From: Geosiphon pyriformis uo1
Lineage: Eukaryota; Fungi; Glomeromycota
DNA length: 64,000 nucleotides
Direction: 5' to 3'
Assembly: GCA_016748015.1 (NCBI GenBank)
Contig: JAAOMT010000222.1
Span: 499,924-563,923, forward strand
Below, piece by piece: positions 1,839-64,000 of the stretch (its first letter is position 1; each line of letters begins with the position of its first letter). The notes below the pieces were generated by a model. That model was not told the origin of the DNA. It was given only the letters and a program-made list of their open reading frames with translations, and made no database searches. The position numbers and the translations under genes were made by a program.

Positions 1839-2690
1839 TGTTACAGGATGGTTTTCTTGTTATATTTAATTGCTGATATCCTGCTTTAATTGCAATCAGT
1901 CTTTCGTGAGTTCCTCAATTCTATTTGTGTGATAATGTCACTGTTATACTGAAGGCTTTCTTTTTACTGTTGTGATGTAAGTTATTCTTTAATTTTTGAT
2001 TGTTGTGTGTGTTTATGTACTCCTTCTCAGAGGCTGAACTGAAATCTACCCACTGTCTGGGGTCTTCTCTGAGGCTATCCTTGCAATTGCCTGATGTGTT
2101 TCTCTAATCTAGAAACACAGAATGTTAATGGTCTTTAGCACTTTTCTTATCAATTAGTAACAACATGAATAATCTTGATTAAGGATTATTCTTCCAAGGG
2201 ATTCAGTTAATGAATGATAATTTTATTCAATAAATAATACAAGTAAGTTTCTTAATACTTTGGGTTGTGATAGTTCCGTTTTAAATATTCTTTTTCATTT
2301 CTTTTTGATTTTTAAAGGTTTTTTGGGATATTTAATTTGAAAGTATGATTTAAAGTGGAGTTTGTTGAATAAAATTGGATTTGTTGCTTGATAAGTTATG
2401 ATTTTTTTTTTATTACTTGATTGATTATTTTCCAATATTAAAACTACTGTATATATACATGTTTGTAGTTCTACGAGAAAATACTTTCTTTTTGATATTT
2501 CAACCTGGTGTTTGCTGCTATTACCAGTTGGTGTTGGCTGCTATTGTGAACTGGTGCTTGCCATTATCACGAGATGGTATTTGCTACTATGTTAATCATT
2601 ACCTTTCTAAGATTATTACTGTGCTATATTATGATTGAATAGTTTGTATTATTTTTATGATTCTTTTTGCTAAATTCTTAAACCATAACA
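1839..2690 (-). repeat. Element A 3' LTR (852 bp)
   Basis: Direct repeat of 10658-11363; TGTTA...TAACA termini. Confidence 0.96.
2506..2590. repeat. About four imperfect ~23-bp tandem repeats in element A U3
   Basis: TGGTGTTTGCTGCTAT / TGGTGTTGGCTGCTAT / TGGTGCTTGCCATTAT / TGGTATTTGCTACTAT; also present at ~11178-11262. Confidence 0.75.
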
Positions 2691-2705
2691 TTATCCTTTC
2701 CTTTC
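2691..2705 (-). other. Polypurine tract of element A
   Basis: GAAAGGAAAGGATAA on the - strand abutting the 3' LTR. Confidence 0.9.
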
Positions 2706-3372
2706 AAGATTGAGCTCCATCAAAATCGAAGTTAATTTCTTCATTAAATTCTAAGTTACTATAGTGGTTCAATACTGTGTTATTAATTTGTTATTGTAAT
2801 TCTTGAAATTGCGAGTTGGTAAGTCGTCCAATACTGTTGGTTGTTATTATGTTCATGATTGGCTCCAACAATAATTTGTGACAGTTTTCAAATGCTTTGA
2901 AAATTCTGTAAACTGTTTTTGAATAGAATGTAGTGTTGGTTTTTCCAATGAAAGGTTCTAATAGTTGGATAGTTGTTTTGTCAAACACTCTAGTTGAGTC
3001 TTTTGAATATAATGTTTGTATGTTTAAGTGCTTTCCTAGTTGATAATAACAGTAATTAATTGGAAATTTCGTTTTCAAGTTGCTAAATGTGTCTGGTGTT
3101 AATTCACTTATTTCTATTTCTTTCATTATTAATGTATTGCCCAATGCTATCTCTAATTTTTCAATAACTTTGCTAATAAATTTGTTGTTATATTTGGCAA
3201 TATTATATGGTTCAAAATTATGTTCTTTTCTTGTTTTTGGATTTTCTATTGTTCTTTTTATGTATGTTATTTTGGAGCTATTAACTGTGATTTCTAGATC
3301 AGATTTTAATTGTTGTAAGCTTTCAATTAATTGTTGAGTTATATTGTTGATGTTTTCTAGAATAAGTATCAT
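2704..3372 (-). pseudogene. Element A ORF3, ~222 aa protein of unknown function (one premature TAA at 2791-2793)
   Basis: ORF 2791-3372 continues in frame to ...NFDFDGAQS*; homologues sit at the same position in B, C, D and F. Confidence 0.85.
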
Positions 3373-3456: not shown

Positions 3457-4837
3457 TTATCTTTTCGAATAATGTTCAATTAAAACTATTGGTTCTAAAT
3501 CTTGTGGAATTTGTTCTGGTAGAATTAAAGATAATTGTGTTCCAATTCTGGGTGTTTTTGTTGTTATTACTGGTTTACTGTAATAGAATTTCAGCCGGTT
3601 ACTATGTGCTGCTTTTCTTAATATTTTATCATCTAGTCTTAGCTTGTATGCTCTATTTCCAAGTATTTCGTGAATATAAAATAGTTCATCTCACTTGTGA
3701 TCAAATTTTCCACTCCACTGTTTTTCCATTTTTATACGATGCAACAATACTTTATCTCCAATTTTGTAGCTAATTATATTATCTGATAACTGGTTATTAT
3801 GTCTCACTTTTTGTTGTTCTTGTGATTGTTCAATATTTTGTGCTGCTTTTCTTCTTTTATTTTCTAAAGTTCCCATTAATTCATATGTTCTTCTAAGTAG
3901 TGTTTCCTGGAATGTTGCTTCCGTAATAGTGTCACTTGGATAAGTTGGGATAGTAAGTTCAACTGGTAATGTGGCTTTTTTTTTCATAAACTAGTTCAAA
4001 CGGTGTGAATTGTGTAGTATTTTGTTTTACTGTTCTATATGCTAGTAGTACTGCTAGTATGAACAAATCCTATTCTTTTTCATGTTCATTACTAATTTTC
4101 GCCAGTGATTCGCATAATGTGTGATTAAATTTTTCAACTAATCCATTTGTTTGAGGGTGGTATGGTGATGACAGTGGTCGCTTGATTCCAAATTTTTGGC
4201 TAAGTTCTTTTAAGGTGCTGTTTACGAAGTGTGTGCCTTGATCTGATAGCAATTCTTGTGAACATCCATGTTGGCAAATTAAGTCTTCATGTACGAATTG
4301 AGCTATGGAAATAGCATCAGCTGTTTTAATAGCTCTAGCTTCTAGTCATTTGGTGAGATAGTCCATGGCTACTGCAATATAATGGTTGTTTCTTGTTGTT
4401 ATTGGTAAGGGTCTAACTAAATCAATTCCGATTCTGTCAAATGGCTGTCCAACTTTTATTGGTCTTAATAATTCCATTGTTTTTGCTCCTTCTCTTCATT
4501 GGCATGGGTCACAATTTCTTATGTATTGGATTATGTCTGAACTCATTTTTGGCCAATAGTAACGGCTAGTTGCACATTGGATGATTGCTGTTTTTCCAAA
4601 GTGGTCTGAATGAACATCTGAGTGCATGTTAAATAAGATAGTTTCTTTTTCATCCATGGTTATAACTTTTAATGGATTATCTGGATTTTGTTGATTCCGG
4701 TAATAAAGTATGTGATTTTGAATGAAATAGTGTTTTGCTAATTTTTGGAGCTTAATTAACTCTTTTACTGGCATTTCTTCATCTATTTGTAGTGTTTCCA
4801 AGTATTGGCTGAGATTTTTGTAAAAGTGGTTGTTCAT
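3457..4837 (-). pseudogene. Element A integrase (stand-alone ORF2), with stops and one frameshift
   Basis: Own ATG (MNNHFYK); HHCC (HSDVHSDH...CDPC); DDE core (IGIDLV, LSDQG, NGLVE); C-terminal GPY/F-like module; frameshift in a T-run near 3980. Confidence 0.93.
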
Positions 4838-4866
4838 TGTTGTTATGGCGGGTGGGTTGGTGATTT

Positions 4867-6279
4867 TTATGTGTGTCTCATTCTTGACAAACAGTTGGCA
4901 TTAGCATTTTTGGTACCTTCTTTGTATTTAATAATATAATTGTATGGTGCTAACGTTTGTGACCATCTGGCATATTTTCCTTTTAGCACTTTCTTGTTAT
5001 TTAACCAGACCAGACCTCTATGATCTGTCGTAATCTCAAAAGGTTGGTACCATAAATATGTGTCAAAGTGAACACAACTCCAGACTACTGCTAAGCATTC
5101 AAGTTCATGTGCTGCATAGTTTTGTTCTGCCGTACTGAGACTTCTGCTGGCATAAGCGATTACACGTTCTCTTCCATTATCATCTTTTTGTGACAGAATA
5201 GCTCCAAGTCCAGTTTCAGAGGCATCTGTGGCCAAACTGAATTTCTTGTTGAAATTCAGATAGATTATTATTGGTAATTCAATGAGCTTTTGTCTAAGGT
5301 ACTCAAAAGCTTTTTGTTGTGCTTCAGTCCATTCAAACTTCACATTTTTAGATAGTAGGTAATTAAGGGGTTTGGTGATATTTGAAAAGTTTTCTACAAA
5401 GCGGCAGTAGTAAGATGTGAGTTCTAAAAAGCTTCTAACTTCTGAAACGTTTCAAGGTACTGGAAAATTTTTCACTTTGTCTATTTTTGATGAATCTGGT
5501 TTTATTCCATCTTTTCCAACTACGTGTCCTAAAAATGCTAGCTCATTTTTCCCAAAGAAACATTTTTCTAGATTTAGTTTAAGTCCAGCATGTCTCAATC
5601 TCTCAAAAACTTGTTGTAAATGTTGGAGATGATCTGTGAATTTTGACGAGAAAACATTTGTATCATCCAAGTAGACAACAACAGATTGCCACAGGATTCC
5701 GGAGTAAATTACGTCCATTAGTCTTTGGAATGTCACGGGAGTGTTTGTTAATCCAAATGACATTACATTGAACTCATAATTGCCATTTTGTATTGTGAAT
5801 GCTGTTTTATGCCTGTCTTTTGGGTCCATTTCCACTTGCCAGTACCCACTGGTCAAGTCCAGTGTAGAAAACCATTTTGCTCCTCCAAAAACGTCAAAGA
5901 TTTTGTCAATTAACAGTATTGGATATGAGTCTTTGGTTGTTTTGCTGTTTAGTTTGTGATAGTCGATGCAAAATCTAATTTTTCCATTCTTTTTCCTTAC
6001 TAAAACAACTGGTGAAGACCATGGGCTTATTGATGGTTGTATTATTCCTTTTTCCAACATGCTTTGGACTTCTTCTCTGATAAAATTATGCTCCATTGGT
6101 GGGACACGGTAAGTGTGTTGTTTTTCAGGTCTGGCGTCTCCAGTGGAGATTTGGTGTTGAACCAAGTTGGTTCTTCCAAATTCGCCATTTCTTGAAAATA
6201 TATCAGAGTATTTTAAAATTAATGCTTTTAATGGTCGCTGTTGGTCAGAATCCATTGTTCCAATGTTTAATTTGGCCAA
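4867..6279 (-). pseudogene. pol: Reverse transcriptase and RNase H of element A
   Basis: SPWSSPVVLVRKKNGKIRFCIDY, LDLTSGYWQ, VYLDD, LATDAS, TDH, NANANCLSRM*. Confidence 0.96.
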
Positions 6280-6702
6280 TTCTTCTGGCGTAAATTGATA
6301 GCATTCTAACGGTTGTTGTCAATTTATTGAAGTGAGTTCACAGTAGAGGGCGATTTCTGGGAAATTTAGAATTTTTTGTGGTGTTGACGCGTTTTCTAGC
6401 TCCATTCCAAGGTATCCAATAATAGTATCTTCTGGAATGTAGACGGGTTCTTCTGTGGTGTTTGTGATAGGAATTTTTATTCATTGAGCTTTATCAGCTG
6501 GAATAAAAAGGTTAGTAAGTCTTATGAGAAACTGTTGGCAAGTTTCTGAGTAGGGCTCAAATATTAGGTCTTTTTCTTTAATTGTCCTTTTTATTCTTAT
6601 TTCTGATTTTCCATATGGTAGAAGCGTGATGGACCGCTCATTTTTAATTACTTCACCTTTTTCCTCTATTGTTTCAGCGAAATTCGCTTCAATTCCTTTT
6701 TC

Positions 6703-7089
6703 TGTCAATCCGAAACCAAAAGTTCCTCTCATTGTTTGTAACAATTCCTCACGATTTTCCACTGGCACGAATTTCCCAATTTTTACCAATGGTAGGAAAA
6801 TTGCTTGTGCAATCTTTTCCTTAGATTCAATGGTATAAGGCTTTTTTGAATTGTTCTGTAGCAAAACCATCAAATTTCCAGTGTATCCGGAGTTAATTAC
6901 TCCTCCTTGAATGCTTATTCCTTTTTTCGCGAGGCTTGATCATGACGCCATTTGAACCATTATTCCTGGTGGAATTTCAACCGCTATTTTTAGGTCAATT
7001 TTGGTGATGCTCCTGGGTGGTAATGTTGTGGATTGGTCTTTCGGATAATGTAGATCGAATTCGGCGTCGGTTGGATGGACTCTTTCGGG
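6703..7089 (-). pseudogene. dut: dUTPase domain of element A
   Basis: All five trimeric dUTPase motifs are recognisable: A(E)FDL, (R>stop)SSLA, GVINSGYTG, IAQ, RGTFGFG. Confidence 0.92.
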
Positions 7090-7259
7090 TATTATTTCTA
7101 AGTGCCTGTTGTCAAAGTATCGGATGTCGGTCACCTGTTCTAGGTTGGTATAGGCTACAAATTTTTCTGACTCAGGACCATCAGGTAAGTCTTGTTGATT
7201 TATTGATTGATTTTAAGACTGCTAATTCTCAATTTCCATTTTTCTTTCTAAGTCCCTTT

Positions 7260-7860
7260 CATCTTGACACTCTTCACAGCACTGATTTTGGCACGGGATG
7301 AGACAGTTTTTGCAGAGGTAAGTGTTGATTTGGGCGAGGTATTGTTCTTGCTCTTGTCGAGTGGAGCATAGTTGTTGGTAGTAGTCCTGGAATTCGTCCA
7401 CTGGGTCGAACATGTTGTAGCTGGCGACTTCGTCAGCTACTTCGGCTGACTCTTTTCAACGTCATATTTCTTTGGCGGTTCCTCCTCTTACTTTGGCTTG
7501 TGCGGTGTTGTACAACTCGTCCTTGTCATGTGGGTAGTGCTGTAGTCTTTTTAATGCTCTGTTGAATGCTGCTTTGAACGGTGTTCCTCCTCTTACCCAG
7601 TCACAGATGAGGATCGTGTATTGGCAAGTTGCGTCACACATTCTTTCTCTGCCTGGTAAGTCGTTCCAGTCGCACCCTCTTGGTAATGGTTCTCCACAAG
7701 CGAGGCACAGTTCCTTGTCCCATTTTCCATGTCTTTCTGGATAACCATATTTTTCTTTGTTACAACGGTTATAATAGTAGTGGGTGGGGTTTCTTAGGTC
7801 TTCGTCTGGTGCGCTGCACGCAGTTATAGATGAGAGTTTTTTCTTGCAAACCAAGCATTT
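7260..7860 (-). other. Cys-rich putative Zn-binding insert between PR and dUTPase (element A)
   Basis: Several CxxC pairs: CLVCKKKL, CLACGE, CDATC, CKNCLIPCQNQCCEEC; the pattern is conserved in B, C, D, E and F. Confidence 0.7.
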
Positions 7861-10638
7861 TAGCTTTGGTCTGTGTTACTGGTGGTTTCTTCGTAAACTT
7901 ACCTGGTTCCATTCGGATCTTTCTTCGCTGGTCCACGTTGGTACGGCTGGTAGTCCTGTTCTTTGGTCATCAGCCCAAGAAAGCTGATAGGTTTCAATGG
8001 CTGGTAGTGCTGGATTTTCCTCAAATTCGAAGATAGGTCTTTGGTTGGCGCTGGGTTTTTGGAAGTGGCCACAGGTGGCTGGAATTTTGGCCTGGTGGCC
8101 ATTATAATTGATCAGAAGCTCTTGGGTGGTCTAGTCTAGGGTGGTGTTGGCTTTTGTTAGCCAGTCATTCCCTACTAACGCTTGATATTGTGTAGCGTCC
8201 ATTACTAATACTTTTGTAGGTATTACTATGTCATTAATTTCGAAAGGGAATGAGTCGATTTCGCCATGAGACAGCTTTGTACTTCCATCGGCTGTTATGA
8301 TTTGGGACGTCGTGGCACAATCAACTTTGAAACCCAGTTGGTTTACTAGTTGAAGCGTTATGATGCTTCCAACAGATCTGCTGTCTAAGATAAGTTTGAT
8401 TGGGGTATTGTTTACAGTGGCTTCCGTATACATAGCAGTGATTGGGCGTTTTTCGTCCAATGCTGCTCCACTGAACATAGCCTCATTTTCCTCTAATTCA
8501 AAAGGAAAAATAGCTGCAAGGCTGCTATCTTCGGTAGCAACTGTTGGTGGTATTGTCTGGCTTAATTTGGAGGAATTCTTGGTTCTGTTTATGTTTCTAC
8601 CGTCATTGTTTCCGATGATCAGGTTTTCCAGTATATTAAGGTAAGTTTGTTGATAATTTTGGTAGTTTGGATTGGTTTGCTGATTGGTTCCGGCGCGGTT
8701 TAGATTTCTCTGGACCAACGCGTTCTGGTTCCACATGGGCTGATTTCGGGCCTCGGGATGCCAATTCGGGTTGGCTATCATGGGCTGTTGCTGGTAAGCT
8801 CCTTGATTTTGATACGTGGTGAGATATTGGCATGGTATTGGCATGTACTGGTTTCTGGGCATTTGGGGTGGCACATAGTAATTATTATCGCGTGCTTCCT
8901 GTATCATTCGCGTTCGACATTGACTAATCAAATGTCCTACGCATTTGCAAAAATGACAGGCACGTGTTTCTGTTCTGAATTCCTGGGGTGACGAGCGATT
9001 ATTTCGACTGTTGCTGACTTCCTGGCTGCGTCTTTGGAGTGGTTGGTATGTATTTTTTCTTGGATCCGGGATAAGGTAACTTTTTATTTTCTTAGAGAGT
9101 TCCTCCCCTAATTGCGTTACTCTTTTCTCTAATGTTTCTGTCTTATTTTCTTCCATTACCATGTTAACCATTTGACTATGGTTAGCTTCTTTCTTAGCTG
9201 ATTCAAGGGCTCTGGTGAGTGTAACAGCTTCTGGTAAGGAATTAGGGTGGGCAGGGCGTACTCTTCCTAAAATGCTGCTTTTTAATCCTCTAATAAACTG
9301 ATTTAAAACCTGAGGATCAGTGTAGTATCCTTGTTCAATTGCTTCAATCTGACGGCGAATTCGATTGAATCGAGCAAGGTATTGGGTGACAGTTTCACCA
9401 GTATTTTGTTTAATAGTATTGAATTTGTTCTGTAGTTGGATTACGGCGTTTGGGTCACTAAAATACTCCAGGAGTGCATTTTTAAATTCGGCAAAGCTTG
9501 TGGGTTTTGTTTCCAGGCTTTGATACCACAAGTTGGCTGTGCCTTTCAGGAAGAAAGGTAATGTTTGAATTGCTCTTTGGTCATTCCAGTTATTTGCTTG
9601 GATGGCTTTTTGTGCTTCTCTGAGCCATGTGTGCACGTCCGTTTCTTCTTCCTCTCCTGAGAAATCTGTTAGTCTTGCAATGTATGGTGTGGTCATTTTG
9701 TTGCCGTTTTCTGCTGGTGGGTTTATTGCTCTAAGAGGAGGTGGGATGATATTTCCTTGAGCGTTCCTAAAGATGGCTTCCCTTATATCCGGTTCTTCTT
9801 CTTGATCACGAGTTTCTTGGTTTCTGGACTGGCTGCTTGTTCCAGTGACTGGTCTTGTGATTGTTTTTTCGCTGGTCTCTTTTTCGGATTCCGATTCAGA
9901 CTCCTCTTCACGGTTTTCAAACCCTGTTCTAAATTTTGGCTAAAAAAGAGGGTTTTGGAATAGTGATGAATATCCTCCTGTAATTGGTATGTCTCCCCAG
10001 TTACATTGTTTAATTTTATTAGTATAACTAGGAGTTCTTGGCGTTTGTGAAGTTGATGTTGATGATGATGCAGCTCCTAATGAAATTTGTATTTTATTTT
10101 CTGGTGAAAAATGGTATGATTTATCTTCTGGTGAATAAATACGTTGTTTCTTTATTGATTGAGTGACAGTTTTCTTTGGTGTTTGAGCTGGTGTTCCTAG
10201 TTTTTGCTGGTTACTTTCCTGATTAGTTTCTAAATTTTCTTTGGTTTTGTTGGCACGTTCCCTAGTGTTTTCTGTGGATATTGGAAAATTTTTGTTGGCG
10301 TATTGCTCAATTTCTCGATGGATTTTGACAATAGTTGCAGCTATTACTGCTACTTTTTTTGTAGTGTATTGTGATAATTCTCTATACAATCCAAGTTTTG
10401 TGTCATGTGATTCTTCTTCCTTTCCTATATGATAATTTATTCTGGCGTTAATATAATAAGTGAGAACAGATTCTGCTGGACAACATCCTTCTGGTAATCC
10501 AAGATCACTTTGATTTTGTGTGTAAATAGCACGGCAGAATTCAAGAACAGTAAGATTAGGGGTTTTTGTCGCCACTTTTGTCTTTTCCTTTTTAGCAATG
10601 AATTATTGCTAATTATTATTTTCTTTTTGATTTTCTTT

Positions 10639-10655
10639 CCTCGTAGGGTTCACCA
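10639..10655 (-). other. Primer-binding site of element A (tRNA-Trp-like)
   Basis: TGGTGAACCCTACGAGG lies 2 nt after the 5' LTR; its complement ...GGGTTCACCA resembles eukaryotic tRNA-Trp 3' ends (from memory, unverified). Confidence 0.8.
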
Positions 10656-10657
10656 AA

Positions 10658-11363
10658 TGTTACGGGATGGTTTTCTTGTTATATTTAATTGCTGATATCC
10701 CGCTTTAATTGCAATCAGTCTTTTGTGAGTTCCTCAATTCTATTTGTGTGATAATGTTACTGTTATACTGAAGGCTTTTTTTTTACTGTTGTGATGTAAG
10801 TTATTCTTTAATTCTTGATTGTTGTGTGTGTTTATGTACTCCTTCTCAAAGGCTGAACTGAAATCTACCCACTGTCTGGGGTCTTCTTTGAGGCTATCCT
10901 TGCAATTGCCTGATGTGTTTCTCTAATCTAGAAACACAGAATGTTAATGGTCTTTAGTGCTTTTCTAATTCTCACAATAAAGCTTTTATCAATTAGTAAC
11001 AANNNNNNNNNNNNNNNNNNNNNNNNNNNNNNNNNNNNNNNNNNNNNNNNNNNNNNNNNNNNNNNNNNNNNNNNNNNNNNNNNNNNNNNNNNNNNNNNTA
11101 TTTCCCAATATTAAAACTACTGTATATATACATGTTTGTAGTTCTACGAGAAAATACTTTCTTTTTGATATTTCAACCTGGTGTTTGCTGCTATTACCAG
11201 TTGGTGTTGGCTGCTATTGTGAACTGGTGCTTGCCACTATCACGAGATGGTGTTTGCTACTATGTTAATCATTACCTTTCTAAGATTATTACTGTGCTAT
11301 ATTATGATTGAATAGTTTGTATTATTTTTATGATTCTTTTTGCTAAATTCTTAAACCATAACA
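10658..11363 (-). repeat. Element A 5' LTR (contains N gap 11003-11098)
   Basis: Matches 1839-2690 on both sides of the gap. Confidence 0.95.
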
Positions 11364-11367
11364 CTGT

Positions 11368-18017: not shown

Positions 18018-18833
18018 TATTATTCATAGAAATATAGAAAATATATTAGCACAATTATTAGCCAATCAGAAGTAAGCATAGTAAATGTGGAATTCTAGGA
18101 TTTCTTTTAGGAATTGCAGGATTCCAAGAATTTCAGAATTCCTCTTAAAGGAATCGCAGAATTCCAAGAATTCCAAGATTCCTGTTATGAAGAATCAAGG
18201 AATTGAGGAATCTCAATTATGTATATATAGTGGTAGTGTTAGAAACAGAAAAAACAGAATCAATACCACAGAATTCTTAGCAAGAAACAAAATCATCAAA
18301 TAAATAATTATTCCATATCTCAATCCACTTTCCACTATTAACACTTCATGTTGATAGTAATTGATACTTGACCACACTGGAACAATAGTTCTTGATCATG
18401 ACTATTAACAGAATATTAATCTGCCAAACTGCCTGGGCTTATTTCTTTTCTTTCTTTATTTTTTTTTATTTTTCTTTGTTTTATTTTCTTTTGTTGTTTA
18501 CTAATTGAGTAAAAAGATTAAGCGCTGAGTTATTGATGTTAAAGATAGTTTGGTAAAAGACCCAGAAATAAGGGTAGAATTTTATATATTATTGGATAGC
18601 TTACCAGAAGGGCACGACTGCCAGACTAAATCTAACTACTATGCTGAGAAAAAAATTGGGAAAACTCTTGATACATCTGCTATTGACACTATTGAATCTC
18701 TGTCCATTATACAAAGAACTCCATCAAAATCTTCAGATACCACATCTTCAGAACATCATCAACGGAAATAACTTTTGAGTACCAAGTTACAGGTTGTTAT
18801 TTACTTCAACAGCAGAAATAATCACCTGTAACA
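18018..18833 (+). repeat. Element B 5' LTR
   Basis: Direct repeat of 27262-28026; AGCCAATCAG CCAAT box at ~18060, GGAATTCC-type repeats, TATATATA at ~18222. Confidence 0.95.
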
Positions 18834-18835
18834 TT

Positions 18836-18852
18836 TGGTGCTCCTTGTGAGG
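18836..18852 (+). other. Primer-binding site of element B (tRNA-Ile(UAU)/elongator-Met-like)
   Basis: TGGTGCTCCTTGTGAGG, complement CCTCACAAGGAGCACCA; the same PBS type occurs in C, E and F. Confidence 0.82.
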
Positions 18853-18895
18853 TATAATCCTACAGAGAACCAGCACCGACAACACCAAACCAAAA

Positions 18896-21800
18896 GTGAC
18901 AGAATCAGAAAATATAGGAGCAAACCATTTAGAATTTGCAAAATCTTTATTTCAACACTATTGTCAATACTTGGGATTAAACCACAATCATATATCTGCC
19001 GAATCAGCCTTCAATTTCTACATCAACAAAAAGATTTCCTCTTTATTAGGAACACCAGTGAATACTGAATCAGTAAGAAAAACTTTCTATAAGGAATTAA
19101 TTCAAAACACCAACCAACCAACAAATCATAATTTTGCATCCATCATTACTGAGATCAACAAAGAAATTGAATATCACACTCAACAAAGATATCCCATTAC
19201 ATATGCTAGTAAAGACAAGGGAAAATTACAAACACCAGCAGTAACACCCAGAAAAATACAGCCATCTGCTTAGAAGAAAAACAGAGTTGAATCCCCAAGC
19301 AATCTATTCTACTACTATACATCTGAAAGCACCATCAACATATCATTAACAGATGCATTCCCATCAACTGTAACATCAGCATTTGGATGATTCCTATTTC
19401 AAAGTAGACAAAGAAAAACAGAATTGTTAGGACCATATGGCGAATACTTTGAGGGATTTAATTTGCAATCATCAACCCCATCAGGACTTTGATCACCACT
19501 GCCTCCACCAGATTTTGGAATCTCTGATCCGTGGGAAGCAGCAGAATCAGAAAAGGAGGAAGAAGAATCAGAGGATTAAGAATTTACTTACCAGCGCCCA
19601 ATCACTAAAAACCTGGAAGTTGAAACCCTGGATTTTCAAACTCAGCAAAATCCAGATCTAGAAAATTCGGAAATCGAAACTCCGAATCATCAAAGGCAGA
19701 ATAATCCAAACCCTGAATTAATTAATCAGCAAAACTTACCTCCAGTAATTGTCATCGATCAACCGCCAATTAATCCCATAGCCGAACCCATACAGCAGCC
19801 ACTTCTACTACCACCCCAACAACCAGTACAACAACAACTGCTTCAACAGTCACCACAACCACCTAACTTGAATCCAATAGCCTATGCATCAATCATAAAA
19901 CTTAACAACTTTACTGGCAAAGAGGATGACGCTCAAGTATGGCTGAATGATGTAGAAAAGGCCATCACAGCCAACGGATAGAATAATGCTCAAGCAATGC
20001 AAGCCATTCCCTACTTTCTCAAGGATACTGCCAATTCATGGTATCAGAGCCTGATTAATAAACCACAAGATTTTAATGCCTTCAAAGTGGAATTCCTAAG
20101 ATACTTCAGCAACAATAACAGCATCAATCACCTAGTCAATACATTCACCACCATAAAACAAGGAGAAACTGAAGCAGTCACCACTTATCTGGAACACTTC
20201 CATTGAAACCTATGCCAAATTCAAGCAATTAACACCAACTATTTCACAGCACCACAGATACTCAATCAGTTTATCCATGGCCTGTACAGCAGCATTTTGC
20301 AACATATATGTCCATTGCATCCAGGTACCCTTCAAGACGCAGTTACATGCGCCAGAAATTTTGAATCCACTGAGTCAGAGGCTAACCACATCCAAGCTGT
20401 TAATCTAGTAATGAATGGATCATCTGAATTGGATTCCAAATTGGAAAAGTTCAGTGAATCAATTAATAAAAAATTGGAAGGATACTTAGCTGACAATCAC
20501 GCCATTTATCAGCCTCCACAATGATGCAATAATCAAAGAAACTCTATTTGTGCCCAAAATCAGCCACATTCATCTTCATCGACCAATTAATGGTGGCAAC
20601 AAGAAATGCATATCTGCCACTATTGTGGTAAACAAGAACATATCCAAATTGACTGTTACCAGCATTTAAATAACCAACGATCGGGAAATCAATATCAAAA
20701 CCCTGATCACCAGTTCCAAACTCCAAATCAATACCCAAATCAAAACCAACCCGCTTACCTACCAGTGACGCAGTCATCCATCTATCAGTCTTTGGTGTAC
20801 CAAGCTCCAATCTATTAACCACAGCCACAAGTGATTTATCAACAACCGCAGCCACAAATAATCTATCAATCCCAACAAATCCAAACACTGCCCCAAAGCT
20901 TACCACCCAATGGAACCCAAAGACCAAGAATGACTCAATAGAGCTGGAGATTGGCAATAGTAGTCCATCAACTGATCCCCAGTTCTTCACAGCAATCATC
21001 TGGATTACGCCAGCGGAATTTGGGTACTGGTCAAACCCAAAACCCAAATTCTCAGAACTATTTAAGTCTCTTGATCACCCCAGAAGACGCCTCAACCAAT
21101 AACTTGGCATTCACCCAAAAACAACCACTCACCAGTAATATCCCATCTGCTATCATTACCGAAGATGAGTCCTTGGCTGCTATCTTCTCATTCGAATTTG
21201 AAGAAACAGCTGCAACGCCATTATTTAGTGGAGCTGCTCTTAAAGCCAAACCAATTACCACAATGTACACTAACACCAAAGTCGAGGGACAATCCATCAA
21301 ATTGATTCTTGACAGTGGTTCAGCAGGCAGTATCATCACACAGCAACTCATGGAACAATTAGGTCACTGAGTTGATCGAGCTGCTAGTGCCAGAATCATC
21401 ACAGCTAATGAAGCGACCAAAACTCCAATTGGAGAAATTGATGATTTCCCTTTTGAATTCAATGGCATCATGACTCCCATTAAAGTTCTAGTGATGGAAG
21501 CCACTTAATACCAAGCTCTCATTGGTAATGACTGGCTATTCAAAGTCAATGCGACGTTAGACTGGAACACCCAGAAACTCCAGCTAACATATCAGGACCA
21601 ACACATGCATGTACCAGCCACGTGTGGCCACTTTAAGACTCCTCCAAGAGAGAAACTATTGATTGAACTGGAGGAGGAGAAAGAGAAACCTACCTGGGAA
21701 GCCTACCAAGTGTTGTGGGCTAATGAAGAGCATAACGAACTGCCACCAATACTTCCCTGGGACAACAACAACAATGGAAAAGGAAAACAAAAAGAAAAAC

Positions 21801-24800
21801 TTACCTGGGAAACCGATGACTTGACCTAGACCAACAATGACGAGAGCAAACCAACTTCAAGCTGGGAATGGAAAGAAAACAAAGAAGAAAAGGGAAAAAG
21901 GAAAAAGAGAGAGGAAGAAAACACTCAAGCCAACAACACTTATATTCCATACACCTACAGTCAACAACAACCATCGACCTATTGCCAACCCAAACTGATA
22001 TGCATTGATTGTGGCAAGAAATTGTCGTCAATGAGCGCATGCTGTGGCAACGACAAAGAATATCAGACGGCAACCAAGTTTTATTGCCATGCATGCCATA
22101 TCGAATGTTTTGGAAGACCAAAACGAATGGGAAAATAGGATAATACACCATGTATAGTCTGTGGAGAAACTCTTCTGGATAAAGGGATGTGGAATGACAT
22201 CCCAGGATGTGGAGGAATATGCGATGTATCATGTCAATACACGATTCTAATAAGTGACTGGGTAAAGAAAGAAACCCCAATAGAAACAGCCTGGAGAAGA
22301 GCCGTACAGCAACTAAACAGTTGTCCACATGATGATGACAAAATTTAGCAAATGACACTCACTAAAATCGAAGGGGTGTTACCTGAGGAAATAAAAACAA
22401 TCAAAGACAACCCCTCCAGAATCTTTAAAGCTTGACTGAGACGCAGAACCCATCATAAATCTCCTGGATTCAGAATAATTCCACAAACACTACCAAGAAT
22501 TAGCACCCACAAGGAAAGAACAAGAACAACAGTTAGAGCAGTTAAATGCTTGACTATGTCAACACTGCCTAATTTCCTGTAACTTCCAGTATTGTGATAA
22601 GTGTGACCTCATTTACAATCCACCACCATGCATGATCTATACAATTCCTGAAGAGAAAGAACCAATCAGCAGATGTGCATCAGAATCAGAATCAATTTTC
22701 TATCCTGATTCAAACTCCGACAACGACAACAATGAAAACACTGGTTCCAGCTCCATTTAATATGGCGACAACAACGATACCAATTCCAACTCAGATTCAA
22801 ACTCTGATTTAAACTATGAACAATATATTGCACTACCAAATCTTTCCAAAGAACAAGAGTTGAAATGGTATAATGACAATGAGGAAGGTATTATGCCAGA
22901 ACGTGTGCATGATATGATTGCAGGGTTTGATCTGAGATATTCAGGAAAAGATGCCATCAAATTGGAACTGTATTCATGCATCTGCATTGATCTGAAAATA
23001 GCACTAAAAATTCCGGTAACAACAATGGTTCAATTAGCATCTAGGAGTAGTTTAGCAAAAAGAGAGATCAATATAAGAGGAGGAATAATTGACGTGAGAT
23101 ATATAGGAAATATCATCGCCATGCTACAAAATGACTTGGAAAAGGCCTATATAATAGAGCCCAACAAAAAGATAGCACAGGCAATATTCCTGCCTCTGGT
23201 TAGAGTAGCTCAGTTAGTGTCAATGGGAAAGAGGAAGGAATTAGGAATAACAGTGAGAGGAATACAAGGATTTGGATCAATGGGTAGAATAGAAGTACCA
23301 GTTAATATGGCGAAGGAAAAAATTGTTGGCCAAGGAGAAATTATCTCAGCTGGTCAAGCTATTTCTATTTCACTATATAGCCAGTACATGCTAGCAATAG
23401 GAAGAAAAGAAAAGAAACAAGGACAAATTTTTGAAGCTGAAGCAAACCTTTGTAAATCAGGAGAGATTGGGTTGATCAATCTTCACCTACCAGCCAAAAA
23501 CTATAACAGCATAAAAATTCCCATCTACAACAACACTGGCAATGTCATCAACATACCAGAAGGAACCACTATTGGATATTTAACCACAGAAATAGAAGAC
23601 CAACCACCAAATTCTATTCCAGACTTTCCACAACTTTGTGGATATGTTGACATCACATCACAAACAATCTATGGACAAGACAAATGTTATTTGCTCCAAC
23701 CAGAACAATTGGAACAAATGAACATGGGAAACTTAGATCCACTTCAATGTATGCAGCTCAAGATGTTACTCAACAATTTCAATAACATCTTTGCCAGCAA
23801 AAATGAGTTTGGCTGAACTGATATCATCCAGCATTAGATCAAGACTGGAGATGCAATGTCAATCAAACAAAGAGCATACAGAGTGCCACCAGCCAGCCAC
23901 GAGATCATTCGTCAAGAGATAAACAGAATGCTTGACAATGGGCTAATTCAACTATCAATAAGCCCATGGTTGTTATCAGTGGTACTCGTCCGTAAAAAGA
24001 ATGGAAAAATCCAGTTTTGTGTAGACTACAGGAAACTCAATGGTGTAACTCATGGAGACAGTTATTCAACTCCATGAATACAGGAATTATTCAACGCTTT
24101 CAGTGGGAACAAATGGTTCTCAATATTAGATTTGGACAGTGGTTACTGGCAAGTAGCCATGAATTCAGCTGACAAAGAGAAGACGGCATTTACTACTAGA
24201 GAAGGGAATTTTGAATTTGAAGTGATGCCATTTGGCTTAACCAATGCCCCAGCAACTTTCCAATAGCTAATGGAAATCATTTATACTGGCTTATTGTGGA
24301 AATCAGTAGTTGTATATTTGGACAACACCAATGTATTCTCAAAAATGTTTGATGATTATCTTCATCATCTTCAACAAGTGTTCGAAAGACTAAGAAGAGC
24401 AGAACTAAAGTTAAATGCAACAAAGTGCTTCTTTGGCAAGACAAAACTAAAATTCTTGGAACACATAGTCAGCAAAGACGGCATCAAAACAGATCTGGAA
24501 AAAATAGAGATAGTAAAAAACTTTCCAGTGCTGACCAATATGACAGAACTGAAATCATTCTTGGAATTCACCAGCTACTATCAACATTTTATCAAGAATT
24601 TTTCCAAGATAGTGCAGCCACTTAACCAACTGCAAAACAAAAATACAAAATATGAATGAACTGAAAGTCAACAAAAAGCTTTTGATATTCTAAAAAGAAA
24701 GCTTATACAAACTCCAGTACTAATCTATCCAGATCACTGCAAACTGTTCATTATTACCACAGATGCATCCAGCCAGGCATTAGGAGCAGTACTATCTCAG

Positions 24801-25118
24801 AGAGGACCAAACGGCAGAGAGCATCCAGTGGCATATGCCAGCAGAGGTTTAATACTGGTCGAAAAGAACTATGGAACACCAGAAAAAGAACACTTAGCAA
24901 TATACTGGTCAGTCATGAAATAGAAAGAATATTTGAGCCAGAAGTTTGAAATGTACACAGATCACAAAGGATTAACATCACTTCAAAAACAAGAATTTGG
25001 AGATGAAAAACAGTCAAGATGGAAAATGGCACTCACACCATATAAGTATACTACACATTATAAAAAAGAAAAAGACAATGGAAATGTGGACGGTTTGTCG
25101 CGAATGAGACAAATCTAA
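18896..25118 (+). pseudogene. gag-pol: Element B ORF1 polyprotein (extension, Gag, PR, Cys-rich insert, dUTPase, RT, RNase H)
   Basis: GTG start; CHYCGKQEHIQIDC, LILDSGSAGS, dUTPase, YLD(N), TTDAS, TDH, ending GLSRMRQI*; many stops and one frameshift near 22412. Confidence 0.93.
22896..23282 (+). pseudogene. dut: dUTPase domain of element B (open in ORF 22860-23816)
   Basis: AGFDL, RSSLA, GIIDVRYIG, IAQ, RGIQGFGS. Confidence 0.92.
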
Positions 25119-25181
25119 GAACATTTCAACCCAAAAATATAACAAAACCAGAACAATACCAATGAAAAAATACAACAAAAG

Positions 25182-26564
25182 ATGAACATACAAAAATATC
25201 AACAATTACAACATTATATAAACACTCAACAGTTCAAGGAGAATTTATCTCAAACAGAACAAAAAAGTATCAAACAACAATCAAAATATTTTACCACTTA
25301 CCAAAATATACTTTATTAAAAAAATAGAAGAGATCCAGATCAACCAACCAGAGTAATTACGGAGCCAGAAAAAGAGACAATATTATTCAACATGCACTCA
25401 AATCCAACAGCAGGACATTTTTACAAAGAAGCAACCATAGAAAAAACCAAAAAAAGATACTATTGGCCATCAATATACCCAGACATCATTCAATATGTTC
25501 AAAATTGTGATGCTTGTCAGTGAAGAGGGAGAACAAGACCCAGTGAACCATTAAGACCAATCAAAGTAGGACAACCATTTGACTGTATTGGAATTGATTT
25601 AGTTGGACCATTAACAATCACCAGCAGAGAAAACAGATACATAGTGGTAGCTATGGACTATCTTACTAAATAGCCAGAGGCAAAAGCAATTCAAAGAGCG
25701 GATGCAGAATCTATTGCCGAATTCATTCATCAGGATTTGATTTGTCGACATGGATGTTCAAAAGAATTATTATCAGACCAAGAAACTCATTTTGTGAACA
25801 GAACATTAACAGAATTGAGCCAAAGATTCAGAATCAAGAGACCATTATTATTACCATACCATCCACAAACCAACAGATTAGTAGAAAAATTCAATAGAAC
25901 ATTGTGTGAAGCAATAGCTAAGCTCAGCCAAAAAAACCAGAATGATTGGGATTTGTTCATACCATCAGTACTATTTGCTTATTGGACAATAAAACAAGAT
26001 ACTACACAAGCAACACCATTTGAATTAGTATACAGGAGAACAGCAACATTACCAGTAAAGAGAGAAATTAATACATATCCAGCTAAACCAATAACAGAAG
26101 AAAATTTTCAAGAAACATTGCTGAAAAGAACATATAACTTAATAGAAACATTGGAAAACAAACGAAGAAAAGCAGCTGATAATATTCAAAAGTCACAAGA
26201 AAAACAGAAAGAAAGACACAATAGTCAACTACCAGACAAACTGGTGGAATTCAAGATTGGAGACAAAGTATTACTACATTGTACCAAAGTGGAAAAACAA
26301 TGGAATGGAAAATTTGACCCCAAATGGGACAGACCATTTTACGTAGAAGAAATTTTAGGAAATGGAGCTTACAAATTAAGATTGAATAACAAAATTTTAA
26401 CCAAAGCAGCACATGAAGATTGACTGAAGCCATATAGCAACATCACATTACCATCTACCAGTAATATTCCACAATTAGAAGTACAGAGAATACTAGTCTG
26501 ACCAGATAAGATTCCACAAGATCTGGAACCAATCATTATTATCAACAACAACACGTTAAATTGA
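25182..26564 (+). pseudogene. Element B integrase (stand-alone ORF2)
   Basis: ATG MNIQKYQQLQHY; HSNPTAGH...CDAC; IGIDLVGP; LSDQ; LVEKFN; KWDRPFY. Confidence 0.93.
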
Positions 26565-26588
26565 TTAATCAAAAGAATATATAAAGAC

Positions 26589-27248
26589 ATGGTAGATGCA
26601 ACAGGGAATATCAGAAAAATGGAAATTACAGACAACATTCACACACTAGCACAACAACTTTTTCAATTAATCCAACACCAGGAAATGGAGATTACAATCA
26701 ATCAACAAACCATTCGATATCAAGATACTAGAAAGACATTGCAACTCAGAACACCAAAGAAAACTGAAAACATGGTGGACAAAATCATGGCAAAAGTAAA
26801 ATTAGCAATAAAAAAATCGACAAAAGAGTCACTATATCAAGAGTTGACTAAAGAAACTTGGAATTGGTAGATACAACAATTTCCAAGAAACTATTGTTCT
26901 TTTTACTTGGGACAACACGTAAATATCTAGAATCTATATATGGATAAAACAAAGTGATTATTTAACAAAAGAATACTACAACAATTAGAACATTTTGTGA
27001 GAAAGAACAACTTATCCACACAAGCCCGAGTCATATACCGAATACACACAGCATTTCAGGATAAACCAGAAATATTGCTTAACAAAGCAATGGATATGGT
27101 TACCAGTAATCAATTGGGAAAAATCACCAATGCTCAATTTAAAGAATTACAGACCCAAATAACACAAGTAATTCTCAAAAACAAAATCCAGGAAATACTT
27201 CAAGAAGGGGAATTACATGAGTTGGATTTCGACAGAGCTCAATATTAA
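26589..27248 (+). pseudogene. Element B ORF3, unknown function
   Basis: Track ORFs 26589-26870 and 26997-27248 share a frame; homologous to ORF3 of A; ends DFDRAQY*. Confidence 0.85.
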
Positions 27249-27261
27249 AAGGAGGGAATAA
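27247..27261 (+). other. Polypurine tract of element B
   Basis: AAAAGGAGGGAATAA immediately before the 3' LTR. Confidence 0.9.
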
Positions 27262-28026
27262 TATTACTCATAGAAATATAAGAAATATATTAGCACAATT
27301 ATTAGCCAATCAGAAGTAAGCATAGTAAATATGGAATTTCAGGATTCCTTTTAAAGGAATCGCAGGATTCCAGGAATTCCAGGATTCCTGTTGTGAAAAA
27401 TCGAGAAATTGAGGAATCTCAATTATGTATATATAATGGTAGTGTTAGAAACAGAAAAGACAGAATTGATACCACAAAATTCTTAGCAAGAAACAAAATC
27501 ATCAAATAAATAATTATTTCATATCTCAATTCACTCTCCACTATCAACACTTTATATTAATAGTAATTGATACTTGACCACACTGGAACAATAGCTCTTG
27601 ATCATGGCTATTGATGGAATACTAATCTGCCAAACCATTTGGGCTTATTTCTTTTCTTTTATTTTTCTTTGTTTTATTTTCTTTTGTTGTTTACTAATTG
27701 AGTAAAAGGATTAAGCACTGAGTTATTGATGTCAAAAATAGCCTGGTAAAAGACCCAGAAATAAGAGTAGAATTTTATATATTATCAGATAGCTTACCAG
27801 AAGGACACGACTACCAGACTAAATCCAGCCACCACGCTGAGAAAAAAATTGAGAAAACTCTTGATACATCTGCTATCGACACTATTGAATCTCTGTTCAT
27901 TATACAAAGAATTTCATCAAAACCTTCAGATACCACACCTTCAGAACATTATCAATGGAAGTAGCTTTTGAGCACCAAGTTACAGGTTGTTATTTACTTT
28001 AACAACAGAAATAATCCTCTGTAACA
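27262..28026 (+). repeat. Element B 3' LTR
   Basis: Ends TGTAACA followed by the TSD; carries fewer U3 repeat units than the 5' LTR. Confidence 0.95.
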
Positions 28027-28030
28027 TCAC

Positions 28031-30407: not shown

Positions 30408-31196
30408 TGTTACTCATAAAATATAAGAAAGATATTAGTATATAGATTAGCCAATCAGAAGTAGCCGTAGTAAATGTGGAATTCCAAGATTCTTCTCAAG
30501 AAGAATTGCAGGATTCCAGGAATTTCAGGATTCTCGTACAAAGAATTGCAGGATTCCAGAATTGCAGGATTTTTTTCAAAAATAATTGCAAAATTCCAGG
30601 AATTCCAAGATTCCTGGTGTAAAGAATTAAGGAATCGAAGAATCTCAATTATGTATATATAGCAGTAGTATTAGAAATAGAAAAGACAAATCTTCCAGTT
30701 TAGATTTGTTCTAAACAACTTTTCACATCAATAAATAACTATTTGTTATTTTAATTCACTCTCCACTATCAACACTACATGTTGATAGCAATTAATACTT
30801 AACCATACTAGAACAATAGCTCTTGATCATGACTATTGATAAGATACTAACTTGCAATTGCTTTTAATTGTTTTCTTATTTTCTTTTATTTTCTTTTATT
30901 TTGTTATTTCTGTTGAGATTACTAATTGATTGAAAATTAAGCACTGAGTTATTAACATCAAAGATAGTTTGGTAAAAAATCTTAAAAGAAGGGTATAAGA
31001 ATTATATATTAACAGCTGGCTTACCAGAAGAGCATCTCTGCCAAATTACTGGCCACCACACTGAGAAAAAAATTTGATGGAATTGCAATTCTGGGAAGCT
31101 ACTGAAAAAACAACATTGAATCTCTGTTCATTATACAAAGAATTCAATTAAAACCTTCAGATAAAGACAACATAACAATATTACCACTATCATCCA
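30408..31196 (+). repeat. Element D 5' LTR lacking its U5 end and PBS
   Basis: Matches 39541-~40329, then jumps directly to AAAGTGGCA (ORF1 start). Confidence 0.9.
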
Positions 31197-31199
31197 AAA

Positions 31200-34100
31200 G
31201 TGGCAGAATCAGAAAACATAAGAGCAAACCATTTAGGATTTGCTAAATCCTTGTTTCAACAATACAGCCAACAATTAAGATTAAACAATAACCATTTCCC
31301 AGTGGAATCAGCTTTTAACTTCTATGTCAACAATAAAATCACAAACTGTTTAAGAAGAACAGTTAACATTGAATCTGCAAGAGAAAATTTCTATACAGAA
31401 TTATTTCAACATACCAGCTTACTAAGAAACTACAGTTTCGCACCAATTATCAGGGAAATCAATCAAACCATTGAAAAATACATACAACAACAATTTTCCA
31501 TTACCTACGCAGACAAAAACAAAGAAAGGTTGCAAACACCAGCAATAACATCAAAACAAATACAACTACCTACTTAGAAGAAAACCAGAGTTAAATCACC
31601 AACAAACTCATCATACCACTATACACTCAGAAGTGCCATTAACATCTTATCAACAGGCACATTTACATCATATGTGACATCAACATTTAGACAACTCCTA
31701 TTTCAAAGTAAACAAAAGAAAGCTGAATTACTAGGAATCTATGGCAATTATTTTGAAAGATTTAAATTACAATTGCCAATGCCATCAGAATTCTGATTAC
31801 TGCCACTTTAACCAGATTTCGGAAATGTGAGTTCCTAAAAGATAATAGAATCAGAAGGAGAAAAAGAAGAAGAAGAAGCCAAAAATTAAGAATTTACTTA
31901 TCTTAGAAAATCTGGAAGTTGAAACTCCGAACATTCAAATCCAGCAAACTCAAAACAATCCAAACCCCAAAACAATTAATCAGAAAAACTTACCTTCAGT
32001 AATTATCATCAATCAACCACCAATTGAATTAATTATTGAACTGATTCAACAACAGCCACTTCAACTGCCCCAACAATTACAACAGTCACTTCAACAGCTG
32101 CAACAACAATTACAAACACCACAACAACAACAACAACAACAACAACAACTAAACTTGAATCCAATGGTCTACACTCCAATAGCAAAACTGGAGAAGTTTA
32201 CCAGCAAAGAAAATGATGCCCAAATATGGTCTAACAACATTGAAAAAGCCATCACAGCAAATGGATAGAATAATGCGAAAGCCCTCCAAGCCATCTCTTA
32301 CTTTCTTCAGGATACCACTGATTCATGGTATCAAAGCTTAGCCAACAAATCCCAAGATTTCAATGCATTCAAGCTTGCATTCCTACAATATTTTAGTAAT
32401 AATAATAGCATCAATCAATTAGCAAACACTTTTACCACCATTAAACAAGGAGAAAATGAAGCAGTTACTACTTACTTAGGATGCTTTTACAGAAATCTGC
32501 ACTAAATCTAGGCCATACAGGCTGATTATTTCACAGTACCACAAATTCTAAATCAATTCATCAGAGGCCTGTGCAGTAGTATCCTCCAATGCATGCACCT
32601 AATACATCCAGCAGATCTTCAAGCCACAGTTACAAATGCCAGAGATTTTGAAGCCACTGAACTTGAAGCTAACCATGCCTAAGCCATTAATCTAGTAATG
32701 AATGGATCATTTGAATTGGATTCTAAATTGAAACAATTTAGTGATTTTATCAATCAGAAATTAGAGAGATATTTAGCTAACAATCATGCAATTTATTAAC
32801 CACCACAATAATGCAATAATTTCAGAAATACAAATTATTTCCAGAGTCAGTTGCATCTAATATCCTCGACCAATCAACAGTGGCAGCAGAAGACATGTGT
32901 TTGCCACTATTGTGGTAAACAAAGACATTACAGTTTGAATGCAGTAAATGGCTAAATGAACAAAAATCAGGCCATTAGTATTGAAACTTTGATTGCTGAC
33001 TACAAACTCAAAATTACATCAGTAATTAATTAACAGAACTGTATTAACCAAATTACTTACCTATAACACAACAGTCAATCTATCAACCACTAATTTATCA
33101 GTCAACAACACCCATCATCTATCAACCACAGCCCCAACCTATTTATCAGCTACAGCCTTAGGTAATTTATTAGCCTCAACAAATTCAAGCACCACTACAG
33201 AACTTACCTCAAAACAAAACCCAAAGACCAAAACTGACACAACAAAGCTGGAGATTATCAATAGTAGTCCATCAACCGATCCCCAGTTCCTTAAGCCAGC
33301 CATTAGAATCTCAACAATGGAATTTGGGCACCAAGAACTCCCAAAACCCGAATTCCCAACACTATTTAAGTCTTCTGGTCTCCTCAAAAAATGCCCAACC
33401 TGATAACCCAGAAACCAACCAACAACCAATACTTACCAGCAATATTCTACCAGCTACTATTACTGAGAATGAATCATTGAACACCATTTTCCTGTTTGAA
33501 CTCAAAGAAATGTTATCCACACCATTATTTAGTGGAGTCACTCTGAAAGAAAAACCTATTACTGCTATGTACACTAATGCCAAAGTTGATGGCCACTTCA
33601 TCAAACTGATCCTAGACAGTAGATCAGCTGACAGCATCATTACAAAACAACTCATAGACCAATTAAGTTGCCAAGTTGATCAAACTGCTAGTGCCAAGAT
33701 TATAACTGCTGATGAAGCAACCAAAATTCCTATTGGTGAGATTGATGACTTCCCTATTGAAGTCAATAGTATTATTGTCCCAATCAAAGTATTGGTCATG
33801 AAAGCCACCCAATACCAAGCACTTGTTGGTAATAATTGGCTATCCAAAACTAACATGTTGCTTGATTGGAATATGCAAGAGCTTCAAATTAGCCAGAACA
33901 GCTAATACACATGTATACCAGTTACATGTGGCCATTTCAAGACCACCAATTTGACAACACCATTCATTGAGTTTGAGAAAGAAGAGAAAAAACCTACCTG
34001 AGAAGCCTATCAAGTGTCATGGGCTGAAAAAGACCACAACGAGTTACCACCAATACTCTTCTGGGATGATAGCAGAAAAGAGAAGAAAAAGAAAGAACTT

Positions 34101-37100: not shown

Positions 37101-37421
37101 CAAAAAAAACTGGATGAAAGAGAGCATCCAGTAGCTTATGTCAGTAGAAGCTTAAGTTCAGCAGAAAAAAACTATAGAACTTCAGCACTGGAACACTTAG
37201 CTATCTACTGGGCTGTCATCAAATAGAAAAAATACTTGAGTCAGAAGTTTGATGTATACACTGATCACAAAGGATTGACTTCAATCCAGAAACAAAAATT
37301 TGGAGATGATCACCATGCCAGATGGAAAATAGAACTTGCACTATTTAATTATACAGTATATTATAAAAAAGGAAAAAAAAATAGAAATGCTAATGGATTG
37401 TTGTGAATGAGACAAATCTAA
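31200..37421 (+). pseudogene. gag-pol: Element D ORF1 polyprotein; RT core open at 36027-36920, dUTPase at ~35199-35585
   Basis: GTG start, LILDSRS, RSSLAKKGINIRGGIIDAGYIG, YLDD, TTDAS, ending MRQI*. Confidence 0.93.
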
Positions 37422-37451
37422 AAACATTTTAACCCAAAAATATAACAAAAA

Positions 37452-38828: not shown

Positions 38829-38858
38829 AATTAAATAATAGAAAGAGTATATAAAGAC

Positions 38859-39527: not shown

Positions 39528-39540
39528 AAGGAGGGAATAA

Positions 39541-43547: not shown

Positions 43548-43559
43548 TTATTTTTTCTT

Positions 43560-47448: not shown

Positions 47449-47512
47449 TTTTTTGGATGATTGTTGTTGGTACTGGTTTTTTGTTAGATTATATCTTACA
47501 AAAAGCACCAAA

Positions 47513-54974: not shown

Positions 54975-55036
54975 TTTAGTGCTCTCTATGAGATATAATT
55001 CTACAGAGAATTAGCACTAACAACAATCATTCAAAA

Positions 55037-60999: not shown

Positions 61000-61029
61000 A
61001 AACATTTCAACTTAAAAATATAATAAAAA

Positions 61030-62412: not shown

Positions 62413-62436
62413 TTGACTAAAGAAATATATAAAGAC

Positions 62437-63095: not shown

Positions 63096-63109
63096 AAAGG
63101 AGGAAATAA

Positions 63110-63970: not shown

Positions 63971-64000
63971 TTGCCACTTTTGTAAATTTTTGGAGTGCTC

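Follow-up and report, generated by a model that had tools for sequence, protein, structure and literature searches.

A third gene, ORF3, is carried by dUTPase-bearing Ty3/gypsy LTR retrotransposons of the fungus Geosiphon pyriformis. It is a frame of 210–245 codons that lies between integrase and PPT in five nested elements of the window—i.e., the whole stretch of 64,000 nucleotides analyzed here—and we conclude that it is a real, selected, and undescribed accessory gene, where non-Env third genes are already known as a class. Among the papers listed by our literature searches, none describes ORF3 or a non-Env third gene in Glomeromycotina. ORF3 has evolved under purifying selection, and its family is, by sequence comparison, spread over seven clades. 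Its product might be a nuclear, likely DNA-binding regulator that acts on the element's own LTR, a reading that we put forward tentatively and at somewhat less than an even chance.

The retrotransposons of the window

Self-comparison resolves the window into Ty3/gypsy LTR retrotransposons that form a nest, several being inserted inside others. Their gene order is Gag–protease–dUTPase–RT–RNase H–integrase, with the dUTPase between protease and RT; their LTR pairs are 75 to 98% identical, and a PPT and a TGG-type primer site adjoin the LTRs of elements A, B, and C. Element A is read on the minus strand: its 5′ LTR (10658–11363, with an assembly gap at 11003–11098) is followed by Gag capsid and protease (8131–9939; Pfam Retrotrans_gag 9e-15, Asp_protease_2 9e-8), dUTPase, reverse transcriptase, and RNase H (4867–6939; Pfam dUTPase 2e-15, RVT_1 2e-34, RT_RNaseH 1.5e-38), a broken integrase (3457–4900) whose stop lies 84 bases before the start codon of ORF3, ORF3 itself, the PPT (2691–2703), and the 3′ LTR (1839–2690), which matches the 5′ LTR at 96 to 98%. 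Element C, with LTRs near 12324 and 41383, is split by the insertion of B (about 18018–28027) and D (30408–40329), and element F spans 54120–63972, all three delimited by self-comparison. Element G (42676–48414, minus strand) keeps both LTRs and has an internal deletion that runs from the dUTPase through to the last ORF3 codons.

Some features of these elements stand apart from ORF3. Both LTRs of D (30408–31200 and 39541–40329) are without the 3′ end that is present in the LTRs of B and F, and since the same end is missing from both, the template of which D is a copy had a shortened LTR. The target-site duplications of A (1834–1838 and 11364–11367) and B look four bases long, five bases being the length in many gypsy elements. 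Between protease and dUTPase, about 380 codons (7000–8100, minus strand, and also 21800–22750 in B) contain a Cys/His-rich stretch without a significant Pfam match (best E 0.095), possibly an uncharacterized zinc-binding Pol domain. A 220-codon frame at 9940–10602 (minus strand) is in line with Gag and gives a weak PAZ_2 hint below the cut-off; it is apparently a long N-terminal extension ahead of the Gag capsid domain.

ORF3 copies and family

An earlier note on this DNA had pointed to a conserved frame between integrase and PPT at five sites, and these frames are indeed homologous: a tblastn search of the window with the ORF3 of A recovers the copies of B (1e-33), D (2e-25), F (5e-21), and C (3e-15). 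In all five elements, the ORF3 stop codon directly abuts the PPT. The frames had been described as open, which none of the five is. The copy of A (2704–3372, minus strand) has 222 codons with one internal stop at codon 194, that of B (26589–27248, plus strand) has three stops and is 89% identical to the unbroken gene model P0009, that of D (38859–39527, plus strand) has six stops, and that of F (62437–63095, plus strand) has a frameshift near its start and six stops. The C copy (40598–41366, plus strand; located by tblastn with P0215) is frameshifted and has one stop or more; it is the longer form that had been claimed, about 244 residues, but begins near 40598 and not at about 40560. The proposed protein motifs fit well in A and B and only loosely in D, F, and C. 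A sixth, heavily mutated remnant is found at 334–927 on the minus strand (E 2e-27). This remnant is flanked by two 139-base inverted repeats (8–146 and 1354–1492; 70% alike), and its A+T content far exceeds that of the other copies.

Every copy in the window is broken, and unbroken copies are present among the gene models of G. pyriformis. The stop at codon 194 is private to the A copy of the window: other A-family copies (P0125 and those in the runs X1 and X2) continue through that codon, a different base being present there in nearly all depth of X1, a DNA run, and in the contig from X2. Integrase and RT are broken too in the same elements. The ORF3s of B, D, and F form one clade with proteins 65 to 71% identical, so the supposed conservation across divergent families, although upheld with regard to selection, reduces for the five copies to three independent clades, which are 30 to 36% identical to each other.

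The proteins closest to the A frame are G. pyriformis gene models with up to 95% identity. A profile search yields 138 gene-model matches, and all 120 among the matches listed belong to G. pyriformis. A B-heavy profile run against 1.84 billion representatives gives 103 matches, 17 of the 20 checked being from the same fungus; P0206, also among the 103, is a tandem repeat artefact and was discarded. The 56 matches of a third profile search comprise 55 G. pyriformis proteins and P0172. ORF3 may also resemble a large protein family that is repeated in other Glomeromycotina. For column counts, seven clades were distinguished: A, B/D/F, C, another two groups from Geosiphon, and two proteins from metagenomes.

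P0172 is encoded on the metagenome contig L001, which shows the same arrangement of RT–RNase H–integrase, a gap of about 315 bases, ORF3, PPT, and the start of an LTR. Here, ORF3 is open over 230 codons and 25% identical to that of A. Between clades, identities amount to 22 to 36% for ORF3 versus 46 to 69% for integrase, and the two are correlated (Spearman 0.75 over 15 pairs). In six-element trees, which are poorly resolved, the A integrase groups with L001, whereas the A ORF3 does not.

Selection, decay, and the motif before the PPT

Codon-model dN/dS, here given as point estimates, is 0.16 for ORF3 over five copies (218 codons) and 0.19 over B/D/F; the corresponding values for integrase are 0.15 and 0.29. 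The exclusion of C>T/G>A sites that the earlier note had proposed was carried out by counting transversions alone, which sets aside C-to-T decay. The resulting pN/pS ratios—uncorrected and from nonindependent pairs—range from 0.27 to 0.65 for ORF3 with upper bootstrap limits below 1 in all 10 pairs, and a ratio near 1 is thus absent. Integrase gives 0.11 to 0.26 by the same transversion-only measure and, hence, ORF3 is the less constrained of the two in this respect. When the sequences are re-read in six frames, the ORF3 frame has the lowest pN/pS in all five pairs tested. ORF3 has been preserved by selection, as had been supposed.

The LTR pairs differ by 532 transitions versus 72 transversions, and CpG amounts to 0.25 of expectation. 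Together with the likewise damaged integrase and RT, this transition excess makes the breaks in ORF3 fit decay after insertion. Besides CpG, C-to-T differences in LTR pairs affect cytosines before A, C, and T at similar rates (0.31–0.34), the mutation process hence not being limited to CpG. Transition excess and CpG deficit would fit methylation of the elements by the host; in another fungus of the Glomeromycotina, transposons are described as bearing mCG (10.1101/2021.03.30.436303).

The last codons of ORF3 follow a different logic. The 15 bases just before the PPT (2704–2718, minus strand), which overlap the last ORF3 codons of A, do not differ between A and L001, yet ORF3 reads them in different frames; in L001, the motif lies at about 3102–3116, and the third gene continues past it into the LTR. 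A related motif is found at 27235 (B), 39514 (D), 63082 (F), and 43573 (G), surviving in G where almost all of ORF3 is lost; all families thus conserve the motif next to the PPT. Because of the other frame in L001 and the retention in G, the terminal AQ[SY]*, which had been listed as a protein motif, is to be regarded as a DNA element and not as protein conservation. A role as cis signal, in either reverse transcription or integration, is likely.

Protein features and predicted structure

A scan of seven clade representatives by hydropathy and motif confirms the absence of a membrane segment (best 19-residue hydropathy 0.27–1.29) and of a furin site (RxK/RR) in all seven. Their first 35 residues are, by hydropathy only, without a strong hydrophobic stretch (best 10-residue mean 0.46–1.45). 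Each of the seven bears one to three cysteines, and pI ranges from 5.4 to 9.7 so that the overall charge is not consistently basic.

The expectation of a soluble, mostly helical protein is borne out by the AlphaFold2 model of P0172, which was predicted with confidence from a 27-row alignment (pLDDT 80, core 85–97, pTM 0.66). An earlier model of the B-family protein P0009 from a less diverse alignment was poor (pLDDT 49) and gave no usable structural match. In the P0172 model, an N-terminal alpha–beta–beta module (helix 7–21, strands 25–29 and 34–38) is followed by a disordered stretch (42–52), a helix (54–66), and a helical domain with helices at 82–93, 100–119, 126–141, and 146–160, after which come two short helices and a long one at the C-terminus. 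Helices 126–141 and 146–160 are joined by a G-K-T-N turn. Mapped onto A through alignment A6, this predicted helix–Gly turn–helix, a candidate unit for DNA binding, corresponds to about residues 130–161 (2890–2985, minus strand). Residues Y102, G108, G142, N145, F160, L167, and G181 are conserved across clades; the turn has Gly and Asn as majority residues in all seven, Lys or Arg occupies helix position 151 in five of seven, and Arg position 155 in five of seven.

The linker between module and helical domain carries a second feature. PY-NLS signals have the consensus [RKH]x2-5PY, are located in disordered sequence where a basic or hydrophobic patch precedes them, and are typical of RNA-binding shuttling proteins, according to the account in PMC8140498. 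Five of the seven clades have [RKH]x2-5PY in the linker (residues 39–56), where model confidence is below 50; in A, the motif is at residues 49–56 of the predicted disordered linker (3205–3228, minus strand). It is absent from the largest clade, B/D/F, and from P0186, in both of which the linker is Lys/Arg-rich. As the motif occurs anywhere in 10 to 26% of shuffles of the proteins having it, it is the shared linker position that carries the weight. On this sequence pattern, nuclear import is predicted, which would proceed through karyopherin beta2.

Searches for a known family or fold

No significant family match to ORF3 was found in Pfam, PHROGs, NCBIfam, or PDB sequences, and Foldseek returned no match at E 0.001 for the ORF3 model in PDB and viral libraries. 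VIA-align gave best Z scores of 4.5 among 48,161 chains and 4.0 among 990, none of them significant. These structure searches barely probed the N-terminal module, and absence of a match does not equal a new fold. The proposed modeling and fold search hence yielded a confident model of P0172 but no significant fold match. A confident match to Env or to a known Pol-derived domain, which the earlier note had named as a result that would speak against its view, was looked for by sequence and structure; none was found.

Among the best 50 of the 48,161 chains are three DNA-binding domains of the ParB family (Spo0J, ParB, KorB): 1vz0 (Z 3.7, rmsd 3.9, 82 aligned), 1r71 (Z 3.2, rmsd 5.1, 97 aligned), and 6s6h (Z 3.2, rmsd 3.1, 59 aligned). 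Two of these three alignments span most of the helical domain of ORF3. Their Z scores of 3.2 to 3.7 are tied with those of unrelated helical chains and well under the meaningful level of the tool. As modeled, ORF3 is like ParB, Spo0J, and KorB in the helix order over about residues 78–207 and in a Gly–Lys–Thr/Ser turn before a basic helix; it is unlike these proteins—and unlike HTH_ParB, DUF1016_N, and DUF3102—in that no sequence, profile, or structure score is significant, and it differs from ParB-type domains in its N-terminal module and in its carrier, a eukaryotic retrotransposon.

One ORF3 family member matches Pfam DUF1016_N with E 0.037. Profiles were built for DUF1016_N (71 sequences), DUF3102 (18 sequences), and HTH_ParB (26 of 30 loci). 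Block-shuffled profiles scored as high as ORF3 in 11, 28, and 17 of 40 cases, respectively, in a comparison where two of three known-versus-known controls failed too. The hhalign probability of ORF3 with each of the three was below 1% in a weak test that detected one of three known pairs. The helix–turn–helix reading of the model is therefore a lead that rests on anatomy, not on family membership.

Other candidates were set aside. An RGS domain appeared with E 0.04 to 0.25 over about 55 to 65 residues and faded with a deeper profile (E 0.25–0.34), and a single match in 201 prokaryote genomes (E 0.007) was dismissed because of three stops inside. Two ORF3 queries of the ESM Atlas gave no usable match, which says nothing on absence or novelty. 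No match was found by tblastn of plasmids and phages, and IMG/VR contained no ORF3 relative, only distant integrases.

LTR repeats and transcripts

The U3 of A contains three 23-base tandem repeats (2493–2561), which we regard as candidate binding sites, and the U3 tandem repeats differ by family. Such repeats are common LTR enhancers for which no element-encoded partner is needed.

X2 contigs show 12 GT..AG joints on the plus strand—opposite to element A—mostly with textbook donors, which span 6314–10647 and 1976–2318. Nine of them were compared with the DNA run X1, which has no depth at the joints. No long reading frame lies along the path of this putative antisense transcript in the window copy. 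A-family elements likely give a multi-spliced antisense RNA across gag-pol and LTR, as far as a single run (X2) of uncertain type with contigs placed at 85% likeness can tell. No sense-strand joint is among those listed, and the splices in public gene models are thus unsupported by X2. A 745-base X2 contig with 18 differences and no joint bridges 2459–3203 and so covers part of U3 along with three quarters of ORF3, its strand not being given by the contigs. X2 lacks coverage for most of RT, RNase H, and integrase, a gap that is not taken as support for a separate ORF3 message.

Possible function and alternative explanations

The function of ORF3 itself we infer, and a nuclear nucleic-acid-binding role is favored. 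As the frame is separate and comes after the integrase stop, ORF3 would be made from its own message. Its linker would carry the nuclear import signal and the N-terminal module might, on the basis of the model, serve for dimers. In the predicted helical domain, the helix–Gly turn–helix resembles the ParB/KorB arrangement, and the third helix might contact DNA. ORF3 would bind to DNA of the element that encodes it, the LTR repeats being the most plausible site and the family-specific U3 repeats the putative target, and this binding would drive transcription or keep the element from being silenced. In a bolder version, ORF3 is a sequence-specific transcription or anti-silencing factor whose ParB-like helix–turn–helix might stem from prokaryotes; the factor would co-evolve with the family-specific LTR repeats and would have aided the elements in overrunning a genome by which they are methylated and mutated. 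This we consider unlikely as a whole. Foamy virus Tas and plant VANC are likewise small, fast-diverging accessory proteins encoded by their elements, Tas lying 3′ of pol. They are not among the Pfam, PDB, or viral-structure matches of ORF3; the analogy is possibly one of function only, and homology is not claimed.

The same anatomy can be read in other ways. ORF3 could be an integration helper that enters the nucleus with the pre-integration complex and tethers it to chosen chromatin, similar to the chromodomain of chromoviruses. A nuclear import motif and a possible DNA-binding helix would suit this role, the C-terminal frame of the B integrase has an SH3-like domain and no chromodomain in Pfam, and several window elements are nested in each other. 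Targeting domains are, however, usually fused to integrase, whereas a stop and a gap of 84 bases (A) or about 315 bases (L001) separate the two here, and ORF3 diverges much faster than integrase, which leaves such a helper improbable. A little less probable still is an RNA-binding factor for counter-silencing or export, which would shield the element RNA against the antisense transcript of the element or a small-RNA pathway of the host. The likely spliced antisense RNA of the A-family could pair with genomic RNA, and PY-type signals go along with RNA-binding shuttling proteins (PMC8140498); yet the conserved residues lie on the helix–turn–helix-like unit, an RNA-binding sheet is not evident, and the antisense evidence comes from one run of uncertain type, a link to ORF3 being hypothetical. 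A DNA-binding repressor, a copy-number brake limiting the element's own activity, would share the entire anatomy of the regulator, and nothing here fixes the sign of regulation. With 138 gene-model matches, however, the carrier clades are very numerous, which would be less easy to reconcile with a brake, and we regard a repressor as a decidedly unlikely case.

Two further explanations were weighed. That the frame gives no useful protein and comes along with conserved DNA or the integrase tail as a by-product might be argued from the broken state of all window copies and from the DNA element at its last codons. These copies, though, have an equally broken integrase and RT, the codon-level selection is frame-specific, and a foldable domain has been kept at 22 to 36% identity; the by-product is accordingly very improbable. 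For a degenerate Env or another membrane or spreading protein speaks the position between integrase and PPT only, a location before the 3′ LTR that ORF3 shares with Env of errantiviruses and retroviruses. Env proteins of these have a signal, a membrane segment, and a furin site and are over twice as long. ORF3 is unlike them, with no strongly hydrophobic N-terminus by hydropathy, no hydrophobic segment above 1.3, one to three cysteines in seven of seven representatives, a soluble helical model, and under half the usual Env length; the missing membrane segment and furin site lead us to conclude that it is not Env, an origin to which we give next to no credence.

Relation to known third genes and significance

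Fungal Ty3/gypsy elements bear extra frames labeled "add. ORF" with unassigned function, and one fungal gypsy family has its dUTPase between protease and RT, as described in PMC2864245. The ORF3s of bdelloid rotifers, in the description of PMC5408684, are Env-like, GDSL esterases, DEDDy nucleases, or coiled-coil or membrane proteins. The Geosiphon gene is like both in being a separate frame after integrase, and a dUTPase in Pol occurs in some of these lineages. It is unlike the bdelloid types named in PMC5408684, none of which it matches in Pfam or PDB searches; with the fungal "add. ORF" of PMC2864245, it is compared by description.

Few non-Env third genes of LTR retrotransposons have an assigned function. 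A striking expansion of LTR elements is reported for Geosiphonaceae (PMC11952901). Should ORF3 bind the LTR and act against silencing, this expansion would have a direct and testable cause, and plant VANC and foamy virus Tas would have a counterpart in fungi. Otherwise, too, ORF3 would—judged by its predicted structure—represent a well-folded, unannotated protein family, and it explains more than 100 "hypothetical" gene models as transposon fragments.
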